NCBI GenBank assembly: GCA_002794035.1
Contig: PCXQ01000002.1
Location: 1 to 39,062 of the forward strand
Direction: 5' to 3'
DNA length: 39,062 bases
Source: Candidatus Yanofskybacteria bacterium CG10_big_fil_rev_8_21_14_0_10_36_16
GTDB taxonomy: Bacteria > Patescibacteriota > Minisyncoccia > 2-02-FULL-40-12 > IGHO2-01-FULL-4-A
Of this stretch, positions 29,070 to 35,401 are shown one piece after another. Each line of letters starts with the position of its first letter. Position 1 is the first letter of the stretch. The notes under the pieces are model-generated. The model saw only the letters and a program-made list of their open reading frames with translations. It had not been told where the DNA came from and searched no databases. The position numbers and the translations under genes are program-made.

Positions 29070-31880
29070 TTAAACCGCTTTCGGTAAAAACTTATTCCAG
29101 TTAAATGATTTAGGATTTGCAAACCAATCTCTCAAATAATCATGCGGTAACATCTGCACAAGAATCGGACCTTCTTCGGGCCCACCAGCGGGAATGCTCA
29201 CAAAGCACACACCGGTGTTGTTGGGAGGAAATCCTCCTGAAGAGCCGTACATATTGGTATGGACGCTTGCTGCGCACATAATATATGTTAAATGATTAAC
29301 TTCAGCCTTGGCATAAAAGTGTTTATCACCATAAAAAGTAACTGTGGCAGTTTTTAAGAGACCATATGAATCATCTCCTCGGGCCAAATCATTTCGTATA
29401 ACTGATTTTAGAAGGTCAGACCAGCTTGATAACTTAGCCGGCGTACCATGGACCCTCATGCCCCAAGGATAACCATCGGGCGCTTGGACCGTACCCCAGC
29501 CAAATGTCTCATTGCCAAATCTGGGCGCTCTAATTGATTTACTCAAAAAATCAGGATTGTTTTTAAGATATTTTTGCCAAAACGGAAGTTGGGCAAGTTT
29601 TTCCTGCAAGTGGCGTGCAATATAATCGCCTTCAAGATCTCTTTGGTCAAGGGTTTTAATACGGTGATTACCATTAGGAAAATTGTGAATAGCCAAATCT
29701 CGCGTATCCACCATGCTTTTGTGGAAATCACTAATGCCGCGAATATTCAAACCAGATTTAACAAATCTTTCTAAAACTGCGCTATAAAAATCGACATTCG
29801 GGTCGATGTGTCGTTCATAAACCTGCATCATCTGATGGAACGGAAAATCTTCGCCCCTAAAATAAAGCTGTGAAATACTTACGCGATTAATATCGCTAGT
29901 TATCTCACGAACAAGTTCATGATCCCCTTGCTCAGAGGCCCTTTGAAGGTCAGAGGTCATTTGCAATAACCACCGTTCAAAATGTAAAATTTTCATTCGC
30001 TCAGGATCTGGCCGATAGCGAGGATTAAACCACATGTCGCCATTGGTAGCATCATCCATCTCGGCAGTCATGTGCAACCCAATATCTTTTGCATTAATTA
30101 CACCCTCACGACGCATCAACTCAATAGCCGCCTCTGTAACGCCAAGGTGGATCTTCTGAGCGGGGTCCCAAATATACCTTTTGTCAGGAGCACCAAAGTG
30201 GTTATCTGTGTTTAAGAATACATTAATATACTCTGTTTTGGGATAAGGAAAAGCAAAATTTTGATTATAAAACGGCCTGTCCTTATCCAATCTAGAAATT
30301 GGCAAGGATATGGTGTTGAGAATACCGTTACTCCAAGAAAGCAATAAAACTCCAGGCTTAAACATGGGGTTGTTCACCAGCTTTTGAACCTTGTGAACTT
30401 CCCTAATATTATTTCTAAATTCATCACGCAAAAAAACGTCATCAAGACAGCTGGGAGCAACAGCAACAAACTTTGTAACAGGCTTCCCATCTATGGAATC
30501 TTCTCTGCCCACCAATCGATGGTCTAAAGCAAATGGATGGCAAATAACAGTGAGATCAGCCAAGGTATCAGCAAACACCTCTGCGCCATAGGAATCGCCA
30601 TAACTAGCAAGCAACGAATCAGTAACCCTCTCGTGCTTAGGAATATGCGCTTTAACAATATGTTTATGAAGTTTAAAATATGCACTCCCCTGGCTAATAA
30701 CTTTAGCGTTAGGGATTGCTTCCTCAAACTTTTTAACAACAAAAGCTGTTATCTTGCGATTGAAGTATCTATAGTGACGATTATGTATGTTGCTTTGAAT
30801 TGTTCTAGCTTTTTTTCTGGTTAAGCGCATAACTTCGCTATCCCAATGTCTTATTTCACTAGTGTCATTGTCTTTCCTTGCTTTGGAAAAGCGCGACTTG
30901 GCCATGTTCAGCTCAGCTTCAATTTTCTTTTCTTTAACAATTTTTAAATACCTGCACTGATAATATGAAGCTGCCCTGATTAATTCCTCTTCTTTAAGGC
31001 CGAACATTATATACACAGGCCCCGGAAATTCTGGACCCTTATTTCTCGGCCTATGAGAAATTTTATGTAAAGCATCAATAATCTCATTAAACTTTTCTTC
31101 TAATGTCTGATAAATTAAATCATCAGTTATATTTCCTCTCAAAATATCTATAACTTCTTCCCGATATTCCTCAGGAAATCTTTTGGGGTTTGCTTCTAGT
31201 CCTGATACCTCAGCACGATAAGCCGCTAAGGGTCCCGCGGTCTTTTTTGACCAAAGGTCTAAGATGTTAACAAAAATCACAGCCTTAGCCCCGCGATTTC
31301 TAGCATCAGCAAAAGCTCGTCTTGTCGTATTACTTTCAATGTCGGGATACTTAATGCCGATAAGAGAACCATTAATAATAGATACCTGACCTTCTGGTTC
31401 CTCAGAAATAACGAAGGGGTTACTATAGGAATTATCAGGAAATTCATAATTCTCCAATCCTTCAGGAAGGTCGTCCAAAGAAGCAAAACGACCCATACCA
31501 GCCTTAAACTTAACAATAGATGATGATGTATTGCTGGTATAACCCTTTTTGGACTTCACTCTTTTCCTAATAATGCTTTTTGGTATATGAGGATGTGTTT
31601 CTTCAAATTTAGAAAGCATATCATTACCAACAGCTCTCCAAAGAAGCTTATCTACATCAGGTGTCCAGATTAATTCATCAAGGCGACTACTAATCACCTT
31701 TTGAGTCATAGTTGAACCGGCTAACTTATCGTGAAATTCTTCATTAATAATTTGGCAAATCTTGGCCAAACCACCATCCTGATTAAGCAATTGCTGGACC
31801 AGTTCTTTGCAACGCTTCTCTAATCCTGAGATTTTCCATATCTCTCTTTTCCTGTTTTTTTGATTAACTTCCTCAGACAT
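29070..31880 (-). CDS. large uncharacterised protein: Myb/SANT-like N-terminus, degenerate plus intact metallophosphoesterase-like halves
   Basis: Start placed at MSEEVNQ (31880), where AAGGAGG lies 5 nt upstream; the track start at 31898 has no SD. WTPDVDKLLWRAVGND is SANT/Myb-like. C-terminal half carries ordered MPE-like motifs NTDNHFG, DDATNGDMW, NGNHR, YGDKH, ASVH. In the N-terminal half the corresponding positions are non-catalytic (IINGSLIG, FVNILDLW). Confidence 0.6.
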   Translation of the reverse strand: MSEEVNQKNRKREIWKISGLEKRCKELVQQLLNQDGGLAKICQIINEEFHDKLAGSTMTQKVISSRLDELIWTPDVDKLLWRAVGNDMLSKFEETHPHIPKSIIRKRVKSKKGYTSNTSSSIVKFKAGMGRFASLDDLPEGLENYEFPDNSYSNPFVISEEPEGQVSIINGSLIGIKYPDIESNTTRRAFADARNRGAKAVIFVNILDLWSKKTAGPLAAYRAEVSGLEANPKRFPEEYREEVIDILRGNITDDLIYQTLEEKFNEIIDALHKISHRPRNKGPEFPGPVYIMFGLKEEELIRAASYYQCRYLKIVKEKKIEAELNMAKSRFSKARKDNDTSEIRHWDSEVMRLTRKKARTIQSNIHNRHYRYFNRKITAFVVKKFEEAIPNAKVISQGSAYFKLHKHIVKAHIPKHERVTDSLLASYGDSYGAEVFADTLADLTVICHPFALDHRLVGREDSIDGKPVTKFVAVAPSCLDDVFLRDEFRNNIREVHKVQKLVNNPMFKPGVLLLSWSNGILNTISLPISRLDKDRPFYNQNFAFPYPKTEYINVFLNTDNHFGAPDKRYIWDPAQKIHLGVTEAAIELMRREGVINAKDIGLHMTAEMDDATNGDMWFNPRYRPDPERMKILHFERWLLQMTSDLQRASEQGDHELVREITSDINRVSISQLYFRGEDFPFHQMMQVYERHIDPNVDFYSAVLERFVKSGLNIRGISDFHKSMVDTRDLAIHNFPNGNHRIKTLDQRDLEGDYIARHLQEKLAQLPFWQKYLKNNPDFLSKSIRAPRFGNETFGWGTVQAPDGYPWGMRVHGTPAKLSSWSDLLKSVIRNDLARGDDSYGLLKTATVTFYGDKHFYAKAEVNHLTYIMCAASVHTNMYGSSGGFPPNNTGVCFVSIPAGGPEEGPILVQMLPHDYLRDWFANPKSFNWNKFLPKAV

Positions 31881-31987
31881 AAAACCTCCTTTTCTCATAT
31901 AAGAATTTTAAATGTTCTTGCATTAATACTATCTTTATAAAAAACTGTAACAACTTGTCTTTAATTTTTTTGCGTTGTGTTACAACC

Positions 31988-32016
31988 AAAAAAACCGCTC
32001 TTATGAGCGGTTTTTT
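31988..32016. terminator. hairpin separating the small-peptide gene from the ~940-aa gene
   Basis: aaaaaaCCGCTC-ttat-GAGCGGtttttt. Confidence 0.7.
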
Positions 32017-32077
32017 GAATATAGATATCCACAATTAAATTTATTGCGACATTTATAGGTTATATAAAAAGAAAGAT

Positions 32078-32106
32078 CCGCTGTTCCTGTGCATCAGGAA
32101 CAGCGG
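32078..32106 (-). terminator. 12-bp perfect hairpin terminator of the small-peptide transcript
   Basis: CCGCTGTTCCTG-tgcat-CAGGAACAGCGG, followed on the minus strand by atctttcttttt. Confidence 0.7.
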
Positions 32107-32134
32107 TTGAGAGATCGGTCAAATCGACCTCTCT

Positions 32135-32233
32135 CTATTGCTCCGGCCCACAGGCCGGATGATCCTTTAGCGACGGTGCGAGCACCATCGCTAACAGAAT
32201 CAGAAACACTGGAATAATCAGAACGTACTGCAT
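32135..32233 (-). CDS. 32-aa hydrophobic peptide (candidate small membrane protein or toxin)
   Basis: TTGTAA-17 nt-TATAAT (32268-32263) with an extended TG, SD AAGGGAGG, and ATG at 32233. Translation: MQYVLIIPVFLILLAMVLAPSLKDHPACGPEQ, TAG stop. Local GC is about 50%, clearly above the surroundings. Confidence 0.5.
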   Translation of the reverse strand: MQYVLIIPVFLILLAMVLAPSLKDHPACGPEQ

Positions 32234-32362
32234 GGCAGAACCTCCCTTACCTAACTATTTATATTATAACACAAAATATGTATTATTACAAGTGCTGCAA
32301 ATATCGCCTCCCGAGTTAATTATACGAAAATAGAGCTTATTTTTTAAGTTGTTGAATAGAAT

Positions 32363-32381
32363 TGCGGGGGCACATGGACTC
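32363..32381 (-). repeat. 19-nt copy of a tRNA 3' end (T-loop end + T stem + acceptor + discriminator)
   Basis: Plus strand tgcgggggcacAtggactc is 18/19 identical to 32483-32501. Confidence 0.7.
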
Positions 32382-32484
32382 CCTTCGACTCATTGCATTC
32401 GCTCAGGATAAACTTCTCGTCCTATCACAAAAAAAACGGCAAGTTCAGCATAAATCTAAAGCTTGCACTGAGTTTGCAAAAGTG

Positions 32485-32509
32485 CGGGGGCACCTGGACT
32501 CGAACCAGG
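32485..32509 (-). pseudogene. orphan tRNA 3' fragment (Trp-like): T arm + acceptor 3' strand + discriminator G
   Basis: Minus strand reads CCTGG-TTCGAGT-CCAGG-TGCCCCC-G. No D arm or anticodon arm lies upstream of it. Confidence 0.7.
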
Positions 32510-32646
32510 AAGTTCGGTTTTGTCCCGATTTTTCTTCCCCGCCTTAGCGGGGTTAGAAAATCAAGGATCCACGATTTTGTAATCTTGCTTCAGTAAGAAC
32601 AAAATCAGGAGAGACTAGTGATTTGCTTCACCTACCCAAATTTTTG

Positions 32647-32718
32647 CGGGAGTAGTAGGACTCGAACCTACAGTCCTGGTTTTGGAGACCAGTGGTTTGC
32701 CAATTAACCGATACTCCC
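32647..32718 (-). tRNA. trnW: tRNA-Trp (anticodon CCA)
   Basis: GGGAGTA TC GGTT AATTGGCA AACC A CTGGT CTCCAAA ACCAG GACT GTAGG TTCGAGT CCTAC TACTCCC G folds as a full cloverleaf. CCA is not encoded. Confidence 0.93.
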
Positions 32719-32740
32719 ACACAAAGCAAAAACTTGGGCG

Positions 32741-32762
32741 GGCAAGTTAAGCTTATACCCCC
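32741..32762 (-). pseudogene. orphan tRNA 5' fragment (Trp-like acceptor 5' strand + D-arm remnant)
   Basis: Minus strand GGGGGTATAAGCTTAACTTGCC. GGGGGTA pairs 7/7 (one G-U) with the TGCCCCC of the orphan 3' fragments, and it resembles the 5' region of the intact tRNA-Trp. Confidence 0.45.
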
Positions 32763-32896
32763 AAGAAAGCAAATTTTAAAACTTTACTCGTTTGCTCAAG
32801 TTCAAGATAAAATCAAGATTTGGAACGAAGCGTACTTAAAAGTACGTTGAGTTTCAAAGCGACGATTTTAACAAAGAAATTGGTCGAACCAGAAAG

Positions 32897-32943
32897 GCTA
32901 ATTTCGGAATAAGCCCTTCCGTATTTGGGCTTCCGAAATTAGC
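32897..32943 (-). terminator. 13-bp hairpin downstream of rpmG
   Basis: GCTAATTTCGGAA...TTCCGAAATTAGC. Confidence 0.55.
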
Positions 32944-32956
32944 GAGTAGTTTTAAT

Positions 32957-33115
32957 TTATTTTTTGCTTTCCTTATGAGTTGTGTGCTTCCTGCACCACT
33001 TGCAGAATTTTTTAAATTCCAGCTTTCTTTCAACTAATTTTTTGTTCTTGGTTGTATAGTAGTTGAATCTTTTGCAGTCTCCACACTTCATTTTTAACAA
33101 ATTATCTTGTGACAT
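32957..33115 (-). CDS. rpmG: 50S ribosomal protein L33
   Basis: Not in ORF track (52 aa). [52 protein letters not shown] has the CxxC...CxxC L33 pattern. Confidence 0.9.
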
Positions 33116-33198
33116 TATTTTAATTTCTGATCTCTGGTTTCTTGTTTATGATTTTATACCAGCTACAAAATACCAGCTACCAGCTACTAAACTTATGA

Positions 33199-33270
33199 GC
33201 CGACGGTGAGAATTGAACTCACGACCTACTCCTTACCATGGAGTTGCTCTGCCTCTGAGCTACGTCGGCT
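33199..33270 (-). tRNA. trnT: tRNA-Thr (anticodon GGT)
   Basis: GCCGACG TA GCTC AGAGGCA GAGC A ACTCC ATGGTAA GGAGT AGGTC GTGAG TTCAATT CTCAC CGTCGGC T. Confidence 0.92.
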
Positions 33271-33436
33271 TTAGCTAGCTCCTCTTGATTTAATTGTGAG
33301 CCAGGAGGCGATGAAAGACAAGGGTTTGGCTTTCATCCTCAATTTTATAAATTCTTTGTCTTTAAGTCGATCATGTGCCGTTAAAAAATTGAGCAGAACA
33401 TACCTAATGCCAGTTCAAATCTTTCTGTTTTCATTT

Positions 33437-33480
33437 CTTATCTCAGGATAATATTTTTTTAAATATTATCCTGAGATAAG
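33437..33480. repeat. 20-bp perfect inverted repeat (hairpin, 4-nt loop)
   Basis: CTTATCTCAGGATAATATTT-tttt-AAATATTATCCTGAGATAAG, directly abutting the tRNA-Tyr 3' fragment copy. Confidence 0.85.
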
Positions 33481-33482
33481 AT

Positions 33483-33495
33483 TGTGGGCCGGGAG
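33483..33495 (-). repeat. 13-nt duplicate of the tRNA-Tyr 3' end
   Basis: tgtgggccgggag is identical to 33662-33674 (acceptor 3' strand and start of the T stem, plus 2 trailing nt). Confidence 0.7.
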
Positions 33496-33499
33496 TGGA

Positions 33500-33660
33500 G
33501 ACAAAGTGAACTGCTTCACTTTGTCCAGAATTTTAACGTAGCGTCCTCGTGGAGTGTTTAAAAATTCTGTCGAACCCTGTCGAGCAAAGCTCGACTTATT
33601 CGAATATTTCCATATTCTATTGTCTTAAATTAATTGGATTTTAATCCAATTAATTTGAGA
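33500..33660. repeat. train of four further hairpins between tRNA-Tyr and its 3' duplicate
   Basis: 33500-33525: 11-bp perfect. 33526-33569: about 11 bp with a 1-nt bulge. 33579-33595: 7-bp perfect. 33623-33660: 14-bp perfect palindrome extending to about 18 bp. Confidence 0.8.
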
Positions 33661-33663
33661 CTG

Positions 33664-33747
33664 TGGGCCGGGAGGGATTCGAACCCCCGTAGGTCTAAGA
33701 CCGCGTGGTTTACAGCCACGTGCGATTGGCCACTCCGCCACCGACCC
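33664..33747 (-). tRNA. trnY: tRNA-Tyr (anticodon GTA), class II with long variable arm
   Basis: GGGTCGG TG GCG GAGTGGCCAAT CGC A CGTGG CTGTAAA CCACG CGGTCTTAGACCTAC GGGGG TTCGAAT CCCTC CCGGCCC A. Confidence 0.92.
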
Positions 33748-33756
33748 ATATGATAC

Positions 33757-34006
33757 TTATTTTAAAAGTTTTTTAAATGCCTCACCACCTTTATATTTTT
33801 TAATTTGTCTCTAGTGTCTTAAAGCCACTTCTTTGCTATTATGCTGTTCATAAAATTCTTAATATTAACGGCCGACGATTTTTCGTTGATTTAGTAGCGC
33901 CACTGTTATGTTTTTCAATTCTATTTTTTATATTACTTGTTGAGCCAATAAAATATTTACTATCTTTTTTACTTTTTAATACATAAATATACCATTTTTT
34001 ATCCAT
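33757..34006 (-). pseudogene. decayed GIY-YIG (URI-domain, COG2827-like) endonuclease gene
   Basis: MDKKWYIYVLKSKKDSKYFIGSTSNIKNRIEKHNSGATKSTKNRRPLILRIL* (TGA at 33850-33848). The +1 frame then continues EFYEQHNSKEVALRH*RQIKKYKGGEAFKKLLK*. That makes one frameshift and one in-frame TAG at the conserved Glu position. Confidence 0.75.
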
Positions 34007-34037
34007 AAATCCTCAGACCGCCCTGCTTATAGAGGGA

Positions 34038-34089
34038 TGCGATTGGCCACTTTTTAACCCCGCCAAGGGCGGTGGCCGCCACCGACCCA
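34038..34089 (-). pseudogene. tRNA-Tyr 5' fragment (nt 1-13 and 15-27) split by a ~24-nt GC-rich hairpin insertion
   Basis: Minus strand reads GGGTCGGTGGCGG-[ccaccgcccttggcggggttaaaaa]-GTGGCCAATCGCA. Both blocks are identical to the intact tRNA-Tyr, and the sequence diverges afterwards. Confidence 0.75.
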
Positions 34090-34163
34090 ATTTTTAATAA
34101 TATACCCTACTTTAACCCAAAAAACAAGAAAAACGGTGAATTTACCGTTTTAAACATATCATA

Positions 34164-34239
34164 TGGAGCCGCCTCGCAGATTCGAACTGCGGACCTTCAC
34201 TTTACAAAAGTGTTGCTCTAACCACTGAGCTAAGGCGGC
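34164..34239 (-). tRNA. trnT: tRNA-Thr (anticodon TGT), CCA encoded
   Basis: GCCGCCT TA GCTC AGTGGTTA GAGC A ACACT TTTGTAA AGTGA AGGTC CGCAG TTCGAAT CTGCG AGGCGGC T CCA. Confidence 0.9.
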
Positions 34240-34253
34240 CTAAGATTAATGTG

Positions 34254-34868
34254 TTAAGTTAGCTTGCCCTCAGCTTCTTTCATCTTCTTCTCTATCTCAG
34301 AATCACCGGGGCTTAGCTTTAGCATTGCCTTAAAAGATTCTACAGCATCACTCCAGTTTTTAAGCTTAAAATACACCAACCCTAATTCTCTGTAAAAATT
34401 AGGGTTCTTAGGATTTCGAGCAATTTCCATAATAAGCTCTTGCTCCCTCTGTCTCAACTTCTCTTCCTTGCTTAATACAATAATTGGCTTCTCCTCAATC
34501 AAATCAAAATTACCGTTTTGGGCTTCTAATTTTTCTGTTCGTCTCTTGTGGTTAATAGAAGCGGATTTAATTTTTGTAATTAAATCATGAATAAATCTAT
34601 CAATTTTTAAAGAGATTATTCTTAATCGTCTTAATATTTTTTCAGAAAATGAAAAATACGCTTTCTTGTGTTCTGTAAAATCCACCTTCCCTACTGATTG
34701 TAATAATTCTGGGAAAAGTTCCCCAAAAAAACTGCTAGGAGCATCACCTGCCCCACTTTCTATTATTTCCGGATTAAGTTTTTTGAGATAGCTAAACTTA
34801 CGACCCACAATAAAAAGTATGGCCGTTAGTGATACTGCAAAAATTATCAGAGGAGCTATTAGATACAT
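34254..34868 (-). CDS. membrane-anchored coiled-coil/TPR protein
   Basis: N-terminal TM and a C-terminal TPR-like FYRELGLVYFKLKNWSDAVESFKAMLKLSPGD. Confidence 0.5.
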   Translation of the reverse strand: MYLIAPLIIFAVSLTAILFIVGRKFSYLKKLNPEIIESGAGDAPSSFFGELFPELLQSVGKVDFTEHKKAYFSFSEKILRRLRIISLKIDRFIHDLITKIKSASINHKRRTEKLEAQNGNFDLIEEKPIIVLSKEEKLRQREQELIMEIARNPKNPNFYRELGLVYFKLKNWSDAVESFKAMLKLSPGDSEIEKKMKEAEGKLT

Positions 34869-34951
34869 CTGACAATCAACATTTCACCTTCACTTTGGGA
34901 CCGACATTTATGTCAGCCATGAATGGTTAAATGCCGAATGCTGTTTTAAAT

Positions 34952-35401
34952 CTAAATTTCTAACCGCATAAATTTTCCGATTTTAATATTTTCGCCTAAT
35001 TTAGCAATAAATTGATTCATAAATTCTTCAATGGTCATGCTCTGGTCTCTTATATATTCTTGCCCCAACAATTCAGCAACATCTTTAGGGTTCATAGCTG
35101 TTATATGCATAGCAATTTCATGAGTAAGCTCTTGAAACATCGGGTTTTTAGCCACAAAATCAGTTTCACACAAAACAGAAACTACAGTAGCAATCTTGCC
35201 ATTGGCGTGAACATACGACCCTATCAATCCCTGCTCAGTTGAACGAGATTCCTTTTTTGCAGCAACCACTGCGCCATGTGCCTTTAAAATATCGAGTGCT
35301 CTTGCCTGATCTCCTCCTGATTCTTCGAGGGCCTTTTTTATTTGACCAATTGAAAAACCGGTCATATCTCTAATTTTTTTAATTACTTCAATGTCATTCA
35401 T
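34952..35401 (-). CDS. tsf: elongation factor Ts, short form
   Basis: UBA-like IKKIRDMTGFSIGQIKKALEESGGDQARALDIL; LIGSYVHANGKIATVVSVLCETDFVAKN. 149 aa. Confidence 0.88.
   Translation of the reverse strand: MNDIEVIKKIRDMTGFSIGQIKKALEESGGDQARALDILKAHGAVVAAKKESRSTEQGLIGSYVHANGKIATVVSVLCETDFVAKNPMFQELTHEIAMHITAMNPKDVAELLGQEYIRDQSMTIEEFMNQFIAKLGENIKIGKFMRLEI

Follow-up and report, generated by a model that had tools for sequence, protein, structure and literature searches.

A GIY-YIG nuclease pseudogene and an intact tRNA-Tyr nested among partial tRNA-Tyr copies: a probable member of a family of selfish elements in bacterial tRNA genes

Why should an intact transfer RNA (tRNA) gene for tyrosine, preceded by the remains of a small GIY-YIG nuclease gene, be enclosed by the two ends of a second copy of that gene? 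The question is raised by a DNA stretch of 39,062 nucleotides (nt), hereafter called the window, which corresponds to positions 1 to 39,062 of contig PCXQ01000002.1 from Candidatus Yanofskybacteria bacterium CG10_big_fil_rev_8_21_14_0_10_36_16 and is AT-rich (36.6% GC). On its minus strand the genes follow the order rpsB, tsf, a TPR protein gene, tRNA-Thr(tgt), the tRNA-Tyr element, tRNA-Thr(ggt), rpmG and tRNA-Trp. A first-pass annotation had proposed that a cassette, made of a homing endonuclease gene and a complete tRNA-Tyr, landed in a resident tRNA-Tyr gene and took its place. The analysis described here suggests, with a probability that we put at about 0.6, that the window carries a decayed member of a family of selfish elements, driven by a nuclease, which nest within tRNA genes.

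All the parts listed in the first-pass annotation were found at their positions on the minus strand, although the limits and the meaning of some of them have changed. The element starts with a pseudo-tRNA-Tyr, a 5' copy extending over 34088-34012, in which nt 1-13 (34076-34088) and nt 14-27 (34038-34051) of the tRNA are exactly repeated; the second block had been reported as nt 15-27, but A14 is retained. Between nt 13 and 14, in the D-loop, a clean 24-nt GC hairpin, CCACCGCCCTTGGCGGGGTTAAAA, is inserted (34052-34075). It is composed of CCACCGCC-CTT-GGCGGGG plus TTAAAA, and bears the CCGCC-N3-GGCGG hallmark discussed below. The copy does not stop at 34038, as first thought: the 32 nt ahead of the ATG of the open reading frame (ORF), previously taken as a gap, are not a spacer and continue the tRNA, first with a degenerate 17-nt hairpin, TCCCTCTATAAGCAGGG (34021-34037), in place of the 17-nt anticodon arm, and then with the start of the variable arm (first 9 nt, 34012-34020; CGGTCTGAG vs CGGTCTTAG). 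A T-to-G change in CGGTCTGAG creates a GAGGA Shine-Dalgarno-like motif, located 3 nt upstream of the ATG. At the RNA level, the predicted fold of this 5' pseudo-copy is no more stable than those of shuffled sequences (z = -0.35).

The nuclease pseudogene, which belongs to a Slx1/UPF0213-like family of about 80 amino acids (aa), occupies 33757-34006, and its last stop (33759-33757) is followed, after just 9 nt as originally reported, by the intact tRNA-Tyr(GTA) at 33747-33664 (ARAGORN and Rfam, 55.6 bits; the end is set at 33663 or 33664 by different callers). What lies downstream of the ORF is a complete tRNA, not a 3' exon, and its acceptor stem is of the type usual in its relatives. A promoter-like TTTAAA-16-TATCAT, a consensus match only, is found within the 3' end of the pseudogene (33750-33777), 3 nt from the tRNA. 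Past the tRNA come a 19-bp AT-rich hairpin, immediately 3' of the gene (33622-33661), and a structured spacer (33500-33595, fold z = -4.8), containing a hairpin of 7 bp with a 3-nt loop (33595-33579), GGGTTCGA (33577-33570) and two longer hairpins; in the predicted fold of the spacer, GGGUUCG pairs with a downstream CGGCCC, resembling a closed acceptor stem. The spacer ends at a copy of the tRNA-Tyr 3' end, CTCCCGGCCCACA (33483-33495), which repeats 33674-33662 exactly over 13 nt, in agreement with the first-pass annotation, and extends to 17 nt with one mismatch (33479-33495), covering 6 nt of the 3' trailer. Since the remnant holds these 6 nt, and no CCA is encoded, a duplication at the DNA level would fit better than copying from a mature tRNA. 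Five hairpins had been placed ahead of this remnant: all five exist, but four precede it and one, a perfect 21-bp AT hairpin (33436-33481, fold z = -10.2), follows immediately 3' of it, placed like the hairpin after the intact tRNA-Tyr. A third and weaker copy of the tRNA-Tyr 3' end, CTCCTGGCTCACAATTA, matching at 13 of 17 positions and with a 12-bp hairpin ahead of it (33291-33337), is proposed tentatively; it lies 21 nt from tRNA-Thr(ggt), where the tRNA-Tyr 3' end is located in compact relatives.

The repeated 13-mers do not occur again in the 39 kb, where by our estimate about 0.001 occurrences (2 × 39062/4^13) are expected by chance. Repeats within a metagenome assembly might raise the suspicion of an artefact, joining reads from several tRNA-Tyr loci. 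The repeats, however, are 13-14 nt long, below the k-mer length of the assembly, and an identical sequence (100%) was obtained from the independent assembly of two Joint Genome Institute (JGI) samples, 3300004210 and 3300004209, so that mis-assembly, a concern already voiced in the first-pass annotation, is unlikely; the same architecture is moreover found in dozens of unrelated assemblies, and we regard an artefact as extremely improbable. Rfam searches (E <= 1 for 31500-35000 of the window; gathering score for 20 related loci) returned tRNAs only, and no group I intron, ribozyme or transfer-messenger RNA (tmRNA). A 10-bit tmRNA match at 33523-33580 was discarded as noise.

The ORF, correctly recognized from the start as a GIY-YIG pseudogene, bears two lesions: one extra A near 33859, causing a +1 frameshift, and an in-frame TAG (33813-33811), which replaces the invariant catalytic Glu. 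When the extra A is removed and TAG is read as Glu, the resulting 82-aa product matches, over residues 4-71, the Pfam GIY-YIG domain PF01541 at 3.2e-16. For the corrected protein, 109 homologues were found, nearly all of about 80 aa and all featuring PF01541. With their 78-90 aa, the family proteins consist of the catalytic domain and one C-terminal helix (YKGGEAFKKL), part of a conserved motif of the family's own, RERQIKxYKGGEAFKKL; Y, Y, G, R, H and E are invariant in alignments of 32-36 homologues. Profile searches against PDB sequences selected the UPF0213 proteins 1zg2 (4.5e-13) and 1ywl (1.5e-10), followed by Slx1 (about 1e-4) and I-TevI (1.6e-4 to 5e-3). Similarly, the AlphaFold (AF2) model of the family protein P0001 (mean predicted local distance difference test score, pLDDT, 93) matched GIY-YIG structures, and Foldseek placed Slx1 (template modelling score, TM, 0.66-0.71; root-mean-square deviation about 2 A) ahead of UvrC (TM 0.59) and I-TevI (TM 0.54). 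By sequence and predicted structure, the protein is best classed as a minimal Slx1/UPF0213-like nuclease, not of the I-TevI/Seg type. A separate DNA-binding domain, such as that of I-TevI and Seg proteins, was not found in the 78-90-aa family, and the initial label of classic homing endonuclease has to be abandoned.

Databases carry the family proteins as 'GIY-YIG nuclease family protein' or under the name 'excinuclease ABC C subunit domain protein', and no specific family exists for them in NCBIfam, where only sub-threshold matches to GIY-YIG motifs were obtained. PHROGs yielded weak partial matches for P0045, a tRNA-Ser member (best 5.7e-6, N-terminal motif only), and none for P0001, a tRNA-Tyr member, and PADLOC defence models gave marginal partial matches only. 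Within the window, a tblastn search with 36 homologues detected a single locus, and none near tRNA-Trp.

A search for further cassettes of this kind, as suggested by the first-pass annotation, resulted in dozens of loci. Among 80 homologous loci, taken from GTDB species genomes, a tRNA gene on the same strand lies within 150 nt of the ORF in 73, and a partial copy of that tRNA, with at least 10 nt of exact identity, is found on the opposite side of the ORF in 63. Linkage of intact homologues to tRNA genes, on which the earlier reading had been made to depend, is therefore near-universal, and the nested arrangement it described, with a nuclease gene and a whole tRNA between the two ends of a copy of the same tRNA, is a trait of the family. 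The linked tRNAs are Ser, Pro, Tyr, Glu and Gly, and the hosts belong to the candidate phyla radiation (CPR), Bacteroidota, Ignavibacteria, Omnitrophota and Planctomycetota. The ORF sits in the 5' leader of the tRNA. In the CPR (Ser, Tyr, Glu and Gly loci), the usual order is pseudo-5' copy, ORF and intact tRNA; in Bacteroidota (Pro loci), it is intact tRNA, ORF and pseudo-copy, often as repeated arrays. In both layouts a tRNA-like gene of full length adjoins the 3' end of the ORF, and of the flanking copies one, and only one, is a good tRNA. Tandem arrays are found in loci L022, L052 and L036, and pseudogenes or truncated ORFs are common (the window, L119, and parts of L022 and L052).

The two closest homologues, in L003 (62% identity) and L004 (60%, also sharing the rpsB-tsf synteny), reproduce the window closely. 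In both, a 5' pseudo-tRNA-Tyr with a GC hairpin for anticodon arm is followed by the ORF, by an intact tRNA-Tyr, located 3-13 nt past the stop of the ORF or overlapping it, and by tRNA-like 3' pieces that finish with the tRNA 3' end, exactly repeated. A DNA alignment reveals homology across the whole unit.

The GC hairpin had been treated as incidental. In a separate count, covering 82 loci, CCGCC-N3-GGCGG hairpins were found in 68, usually replacing or splitting an arm of a pseudo-copy, and they numbered 109 in the 83 kb around the ORFs, compared to 13 in the 219 kb that make up the rest of these loci. In its full form, as seen at Ser and Tyr loci of the CPR, the module reads CCACCGCC-N3-GGCGGGG-(NN)CCGCC-N3-GGCGG(N'N'). 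The two pairs flanking the core covary, being paired in 70 and 88 of 99 cases against maxima of 65 and 77 in 500 shuffles, with TC/GA, CC/GG, TT/AA and TG/CA as combinations. Insertion takes place in the anticodon at 35|36 (Ser) or 34|35 (Tyr), behind one of nt 13-16 in the D-loop, in most cases A14, or in the T-loop; alternatively, a single 17-nt hairpin replaces a 17-nt arm, namely the D-arm in tRNA-Pro of Bacteroidota or, in Tyr, Gly and Glu, the anticodon arm. No other cis feature of the family is as conserved as the GC hairpin. The window fits this picture, as the first 17 nt of its D-loop module are identical to the L003 module, and TCCCTCTATAAGCAGGG is, judging from its sequence, a decayed form of the TCCCGCC-N3-GGCGGGA hairpin located at the same position in L003, L004, L040 and L064, the differences from the consensus being, in our reading, mostly toward A/T. 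Of the parts of the window copy, the tRNA-Tyr and the D-loop hairpin are intact, the anticodon-arm hairpin is decayed and the nuclease gene is dead: the feature is a dead relic, and the only activity to be expected is that of a working tRNA-Tyr.

Two further arrangements of hairpin-bearing pieces were noted. In a Chitinophagaceae genome, an intact tRNA-Pro and a GIY-YIG ORF are preceded by five 55-nt units in tandem (L036:1600-1880); each unit is the 5' part of a tRNA-Pro in which TCCCGCC-GAA-TGCGGGA stands in for the D-arm. In L041:2330-2700, a pseudo-3' unit is tandemly repeated downstream of tRNA-Ser(tga); it has two double-hairpin modules, one located in the anticodon loop and the other in the T-loop.

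Such regularity might indicate a functional two-part module, in which the nuclease would act on tRNA or on tRNA-gene DNA and the pseudo-tRNA transcript would serve as decoy, antitoxin, regulator or processing signal, after the model of a type III toxin-antitoxin pair or of a tRNA-punctuated mRNA. Replacement of arms by hairpins of the same length (17 nt), together with stem covariation, suggests selection for a folded tRNA-like shape; arrays of short hairpin-bearing repeats precede the tRNA-Pro and the nuclease gene in L036; the pseudo-3' acceptor strand tracks the tRNA of its own lineage in the window, L176 and L180; and the fold predicted for the spacer closes an acceptor-like stem. However, no match to defence-system models was obtained, pseudogenes and truncated ORFs abound, closely syntenic relatives lack the module, and the unit is without exception attached to its intact cognate tRNA gene, an attachment for which a free-standing pair would have no need. 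We consider this explanation quite unlikely.

What sets nesting apart from simple repetition is best seen in a Parcubacteria population, in which an identical 83-aa ORF was found on 24 contigs. In a first allele, a pseudo-5' piece (nt 1-35, module, nt 36-40) is followed by the ORF, by a tRNA-Ser and by a pseudo-3' piece (nt 14-35, module, nt 36 to the end). Pairing is perfect between the outer acceptor strands, GGAGAGG and CCTCTCC, and also between the inner ones, GGAAGGG and CCCTTCC, the latter with an encoded CCA, while combinations of outer with inner strands pair imperfectly. On the evidence of its sequence, this allele is one gene nested in another, and not a tandem repeat. A second allele has lost 119 nt by recombination between the inner tRNA and the pseudo-3' piece, and a third derives from a microhomology deletion. 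In L165 and in L040, a Tyr locus with the same nesting, the outer 5' piece is perfectly complementary to the outer 3' piece, as one strand of the inner tRNA is to the other; cross-combinations mostly give mismatches or wobbles, and the one cross in L040 that pairs at 7/7 does so only with G-U. In L073 (Ser), the D-arm of the outer 5' piece is of a different type from that of the inner tRNA.

These differences between outer and inner copies bear on a rival explanation, according to which the repeats arose by local duplication and decay, with no mobility, around a small GIY-YIG gene resident in a tRNA operon and vertically inherited; the nuclease would perhaps be a structure-specific enzyme acting at highly transcribed tRNA genes, where its activity, or slippage, would create recombination hot spots. 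Several observations go in this direction. Pseudo-copies in the window match the intact tRNA exactly in the acceptor and D-arm, in L003 the 3' end of the ORF and the 5' end of the tRNA are simply repeated in tandem, in L076 a tRNA is duplicated along with about 95 nt of flank, pseudo-pieces devoid of an ORF exist, and no phage or plasmid carriers were found. Local duplication would not, however, account for a nested topology with compensatory outer and inner differences, nor for the window and L003, where one hairpin module and one ORF lineage are shared by tRNA-Tyr genes that are unrelated in sequence and in neighbourhood. The nuclease gene of the window is, moreover, a pseudogene.

Further evidence on this point comes from the tRNA cluster in relatives, retrieved by a metagenome scan with Tsf (80 loci). 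The order tsf-(TPR)-Thr(tgt)-Tyr-Thr(ggt)-rpmG-Trp is widely conserved among them. The Thr(tgt)-Tyr spacer, 416 nt in the window, measures 1-22 nt in L091, L094, L095, L096, L109, L136 and L154, and the Tyr-Thr(ggt) spacer, 394 nt in the window, is reduced to 5-22 nt in L091, L094, L095 and L096. The comparison of the cluster proposed in the first-pass annotation thus revealed same-synteny relatives with compact clusters and no cassette, as well as one, L127, with a GIY-YIG gene at the same spot and a two-hairpin insertion in the D-loop of the 5' pseudo-copy. A conserved site is therefore polymorphic for presence or absence, with compact empty and filled clusters, among relatives at most 68% identical in Tsf. 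The position of the nuclease varies as well, at Tyr, after Tyr or at Trp: in L119, a truncated GIY-YIG gene with a pseudo-5' copy lies immediately upstream of tRNA-Trp. Unrelated nuclease genes are found at equivalent spots, namely a PDDEXK_5 endonuclease ORF (5.6e-32) ending 10 nt upstream of tRNA-Tyr (L117:6236-6631), in a locus whose tRNA-Tyr is nearly identical to that of L127, and an HNH endonuclease ORF ending 6 nt upstream of tRNA-Thr(tgt) (L179:5292-5540). The presence of three unrelated nuclease families at tRNA 5' flanks of a single syntenic cluster argues that these flanks are sites for selfish nuclease genes. Patchiness among syntenic relatives, many of which have compact clusters, the varying position of the nuclease and the diversity of nucleases at equivalent spots all speak against local duplication, which we judge unlikely.

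Other features of the same relatives were recorded. A 114-aa predicted membrane protein without Pfam matches, encoded in a relative with 64% Tsf identity (L176:5327-5671), ends exactly at the first base of tRNA-Tyr and occupies the spot of the window GIY-YIG gene. In the closest relative (L180:2480-3286, 68% Tsf identity), the Thr-Tyr-Thr-rpmG-Trp block is inverted relative to tsf-TPR, and tRNA clusters with flanking repeated tRNA pieces may be prone to inversion. In L125:6790-7085, a tRNA-Thr(ggt), directly downstream of a distant GIY-YIG ORF, is broken after nt 38 by about 200 nt, starting with a CCACCGC...GCGGTG hairpin, after which the 3' part resumes. This interrupted gene is not called by ARAGORN, no intron is found in it by Rfam (E <= 0.01), and no second tRNA-Thr(ggt) is present in the locus; the interruption could be an unrecognised intron, or the gene could be dead.

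The 3' remnants invite a different explanation. Genomic islands and prophages with a tyrosine integrase insert in essential tRNA genes, restore the gene through a 3' segment of their own and displace the old end as a direct repeat. Their classic scar is a tRNA 3' end that recurs, in direct orientation, past the intact gene. Integrases are said to favour the anticodon loop and the T-loop (Williams, 2002, in Nucleic Acids Res, reportedly). The 3'-end copies might be leftover attachment (att) repeats of islands once residing in tRNA-Tyr and tRNA-Trp, with the GIY-YIG gene as an unrelated neighbour: the repeat past the intact gene (33674-33662 and 33495-33483) has this form, and 3' remnants are found in relatives with no GIY-YIG gene. 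Integrative elements and the present family do share the restoration of an essential tRNA gene with displacement of its old end, as well as anticodon- and T-loop sites. No integrase or island is found here, however, 166 nt of hairpins being all that separates the two repeats, with no recombinase ORF of at least 60 aa; the repeats lie just about 100-190 nt from the tRNA, and the units are of about 0.3-0.6 kb, with GC hairpin modules. A 5' pseudo-copy exists besides the 3' one, a whole tRNA, and not just a 3' segment, may lie inside, and some 3' pieces of the family hold D-arm and anticodon-arm sequences, well beyond an att core. Neither the 5' pseudo-copy, nor the fusion of the ORF to the tRNA 5' end, nor the hairpin modules would be explained. 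An integrase scar is, in our opinion, very improbable.

A selfish element driven by the nuclease remains the explanation that we favour, and the following scheme is proposed for it. A unit comprises the gene for a GIY-YIG protein of about 80 aa, Slx1/UPF0213-like, whose ORF is directly fused at its 3' end to a tRNA-like gene of full length, and one or two pseudo-copies of the same tRNA, in which an arm is replaced, or a loop split, by a GC hairpin with the near-constant core CCGCC-N3-GGCGG; exactly one copy remains a working tRNA, so that the host retains its essential gene. The nuclease would break the cognate tRNA gene, or promote recombination there; repair from a copy bearing the element, with tRNA sequence providing homology on both sides, would then copy the ORF and the intact tRNA into the target, leaving the halves of the resident gene as flanking pseudo-pieces. 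Depending on which copies each broken end pairs with, the product would be a full nested unit, a short one without the 3' piece, or an array, in the order pseudo-5'/ORF/tRNA, tRNA/ORF/pseudo-copy or tandem. Such a choice of pairing partners would account for both the variety of layouts and the deletion alleles. Hairpins would either abolish the site of the enzyme in the displaced copies or be the structure that the enzyme recognises, the latter being possible in view of its Slx1-like fold. Cleavage by the nuclease and mobility of the unit are what we infer from the comparison of sequences, and the target, the homing and the role of the hairpins are proposed in the same conditional sense.

Several points weigh against this scheme. 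An enzyme devoid of a DNA-binding domain leaves the specific recognition of very different tRNA genes unexplained, and self-cleavage is not obviously avoided, since the intact tRNA shares arm sequences with the presumed target. Nor is a horizontal vector evident: no family member was found in the plasmid collection or in IMG/VR, and the 13 matches in the phage collection are distant, none of them covering the C-terminal YKGGEAFKKL region. Clustering of the ORFs by tRNA type is confounded with host phylogeny. The landing of a cassette in a resident tRNA-Tyr, as originally proposed, is backed in its topology by L165 and L040, but outer and inner copies in the window are identical where comparable, and local duplication would give the same result. 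Filled and empty clusters are separated by a deep distance, the closest relatives in the protein database being only 64-68% identical in Tsf (Paceibacterota/Yanofskybacteria; best 68% in 5.8 billion proteins), so that gain and loss are told apart by parsimony. 3' remnants also occur in relatives free of the GIY-YIG gene (L176, L115, L132, L142 and L147), and may therefore have a partly independent origin; L180 has one too, in a contig which ends inside tRNA-Tyr and whose upstream side is not seen. In L176 and L180 the pseudo-3' piece lies about 150-170 nt past tRNA-Tyr and ends in the tRNA 3' end of the lineage itself. Finally, hairpin-bearing pseudo-pieces with no nuclease ORF are found at Trp in L125 and at Thr in L121 and L123.

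Some of these difficulties concern the guidance of the enzyme. Hairpins and pseudo-tRNA copies might be not scars, but working cis parts of a new class of mobile elements, in which the nuclease is guided by nucleic-acid structure: hairpin or cloverleaf DNA could direct it, or a pseudo-tRNA transcript could act as guide or scaffold complementary to the target. This would explain the spread over Tyr, Ser, Pro, Glu, Gly and Trp genes and the presence of hairpins in D-, anticodon- and T-loops. We advance it as a tentative possibility, clearly less probable than the scheme given above.

The remaining features of the region lie on the sides of the element. Upstream, tRNA-Thr(tgt) (34239-34164, minus strand, ARAGORN and Rfam) is parted from it by a terminator-like hairpin with a T-run, 3' of that gene (34130-34151). 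Downstream are tRNA-Thr(ggt) (33269-33197) and tRNA-Trp (32718-32646), both on the minus strand and called by both programs. A pseudo-tRNA 3' piece lacking an ORF follows tRNA-Trp on the same strand (32483-32552). It comprises a hallmark-like hairpin, CCCCGC-TAAG-GCGGGG (32552-32537), then a T-arm and an acceptor 3' strand (32509-32483). The acceptor 3' end recurs at 32363-32381 as GAGTCCATGTGCCCCCGCA, in a form that has decayed further. These remnants differ from the resident tRNA-Trp in the T-stem and acceptor, and resemble tRNA-Trp variants of relatives; from their sequence, they are best read as ORF-less relics of elements of the same kind, and not as copies of the resident gene. The recurrence of the process at tRNA-Trp, previously suggested, is supported by L119, with its truncated GIY-YIG gene, while the remnants of the window are not, as had been supposed, ends of the resident tRNA-Trp. 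A tmRNA or permuted tmRNA was also considered for the Trp-side repeats, and none is found by ARAGORN.

Just downstream of these relics, a 32-aa hydrophobic ORF, MQYVLIIPVFLILLAMVLAPSLKDHPACGPEQ (32135-32233, minus strand), with no Pfam match, is preceded by a strong AGGGAGG ribosome-binding site and by the best promoter-like match of the region (32347-32319, 10/12). Elongation factor Ts, encoded at 34952-35401 (minus strand), is just 149 aa long, as in all close relatives; a typical bacterial Tsf is about twice this size.

The closest known system is SegB of phages T4 and T6, a free-standing GIY-YIG homing endonuclease encoded in a tRNA cluster, which, according to two papers, cuts the tRNA-region DNA of genomes without SegB, is inherited through repair copying and, in T6, drives the tandem amplification of a segment with a full tRNA-Tyr gene (PMC2330249, PMC13096335). 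Hairpin-substituted pseudo-tRNA copies, or nesting, go unmentioned in the passages on SegB (PMC2330249, PMC13096335). As far as those passages go, the two systems have in common a GIY-YIG gene among tRNA genes with no intron or intein, a tandem amplification in T6 which resembles the L022 and L052 arrays, and a statistical linkage to tRNAs, reported for phage SegB homologues and seen here in 73 of 80 loci. SegB is, however, a phage protein, while the present family is cellular and essentially absent from phage collections, and is made of bare catalytic domains of about 80 aa, closest to UPF0213/Slx1. SegB is larger, and has a DNA-binding region. What would be new with respect to SegB is a cellular family with a minimal Slx1-like enzyme, encoded by a nested gene which has an intact tRNA on one side and hairpin-substituted pseudo-copies on the other.

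The present family differs from the UPF0213 proteins (YhbQ/YazA, PDB 1zg2 and 1ywl) and Slx1 in having a conserved C-terminal motif of its own and a strict linkage to tRNA genes and pseudo-tRNAs, a linkage not mentioned for UPF0213/Slx1 in the passages concerned of a 2006 survey of the superfamily. The UPF0213 proteins and Slx1 are nonetheless the best matches in sequence and fold, with the same catalytic residues. Slx1 cleaves branched and stem-loop DNA, and hairpin or cloverleaf DNA is for this reason a plausible substrate. Selfish nucleases at tRNA anticodon loops are also known from I-Ssp6803I (PD-(D/E)XK type, Pfam PDDEXK_5), a homing endonuclease in a group I intron of tRNA-fMet; the PDDEXK_5 ORF of L117, directly upstream of tRNA-Tyr, offers a parallel. 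By Rfam, however, the window and the related loci scanned contain no group I intron, and gene duplication takes the place of splicing. In 'fractured genes', a free-standing homing endonuclease gene lies between the halves of a split host gene (PMC2677866). There too a nuclease gene separates parts of a host gene whose function is rescued by another route, but rescue occurs at the protein level, by a split intein, whereas here the gene encodes an RNA and is rescued by a second intact copy.

The arrangement was not found described in the searchable literature, most subscription journals being outside its coverage; SegB and endonucleases of mitochondria and introns were found instead. The family apparently consists of undescribed selfish elements, distributed across many bacterial phyla, which colonise tRNA genes while keeping one copy intact. 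If this is true, they would be a cellular counterpart of SegB, and a common, compact and unannotated type of selfish element in tRNA genes of Patescibacteria, Bacteroidota and other phyla, where an essential RNA gene would be invaded not by means of splicing, but through a spare copy, either retained or brought along. They would also explain many of the expanded spacers, tandem tRNA arrays, tRNA fragments and pseudo-tRNAs of these genomes, and would point to a source of errors in tRNA annotation. Bacterial UPF0213/Slx1-like proteins, currently with no assigned function, would acquire a biological role, and the conserved hairpin module would make it testable how a nuclease devoid of a DNA-binding domain finds its target.

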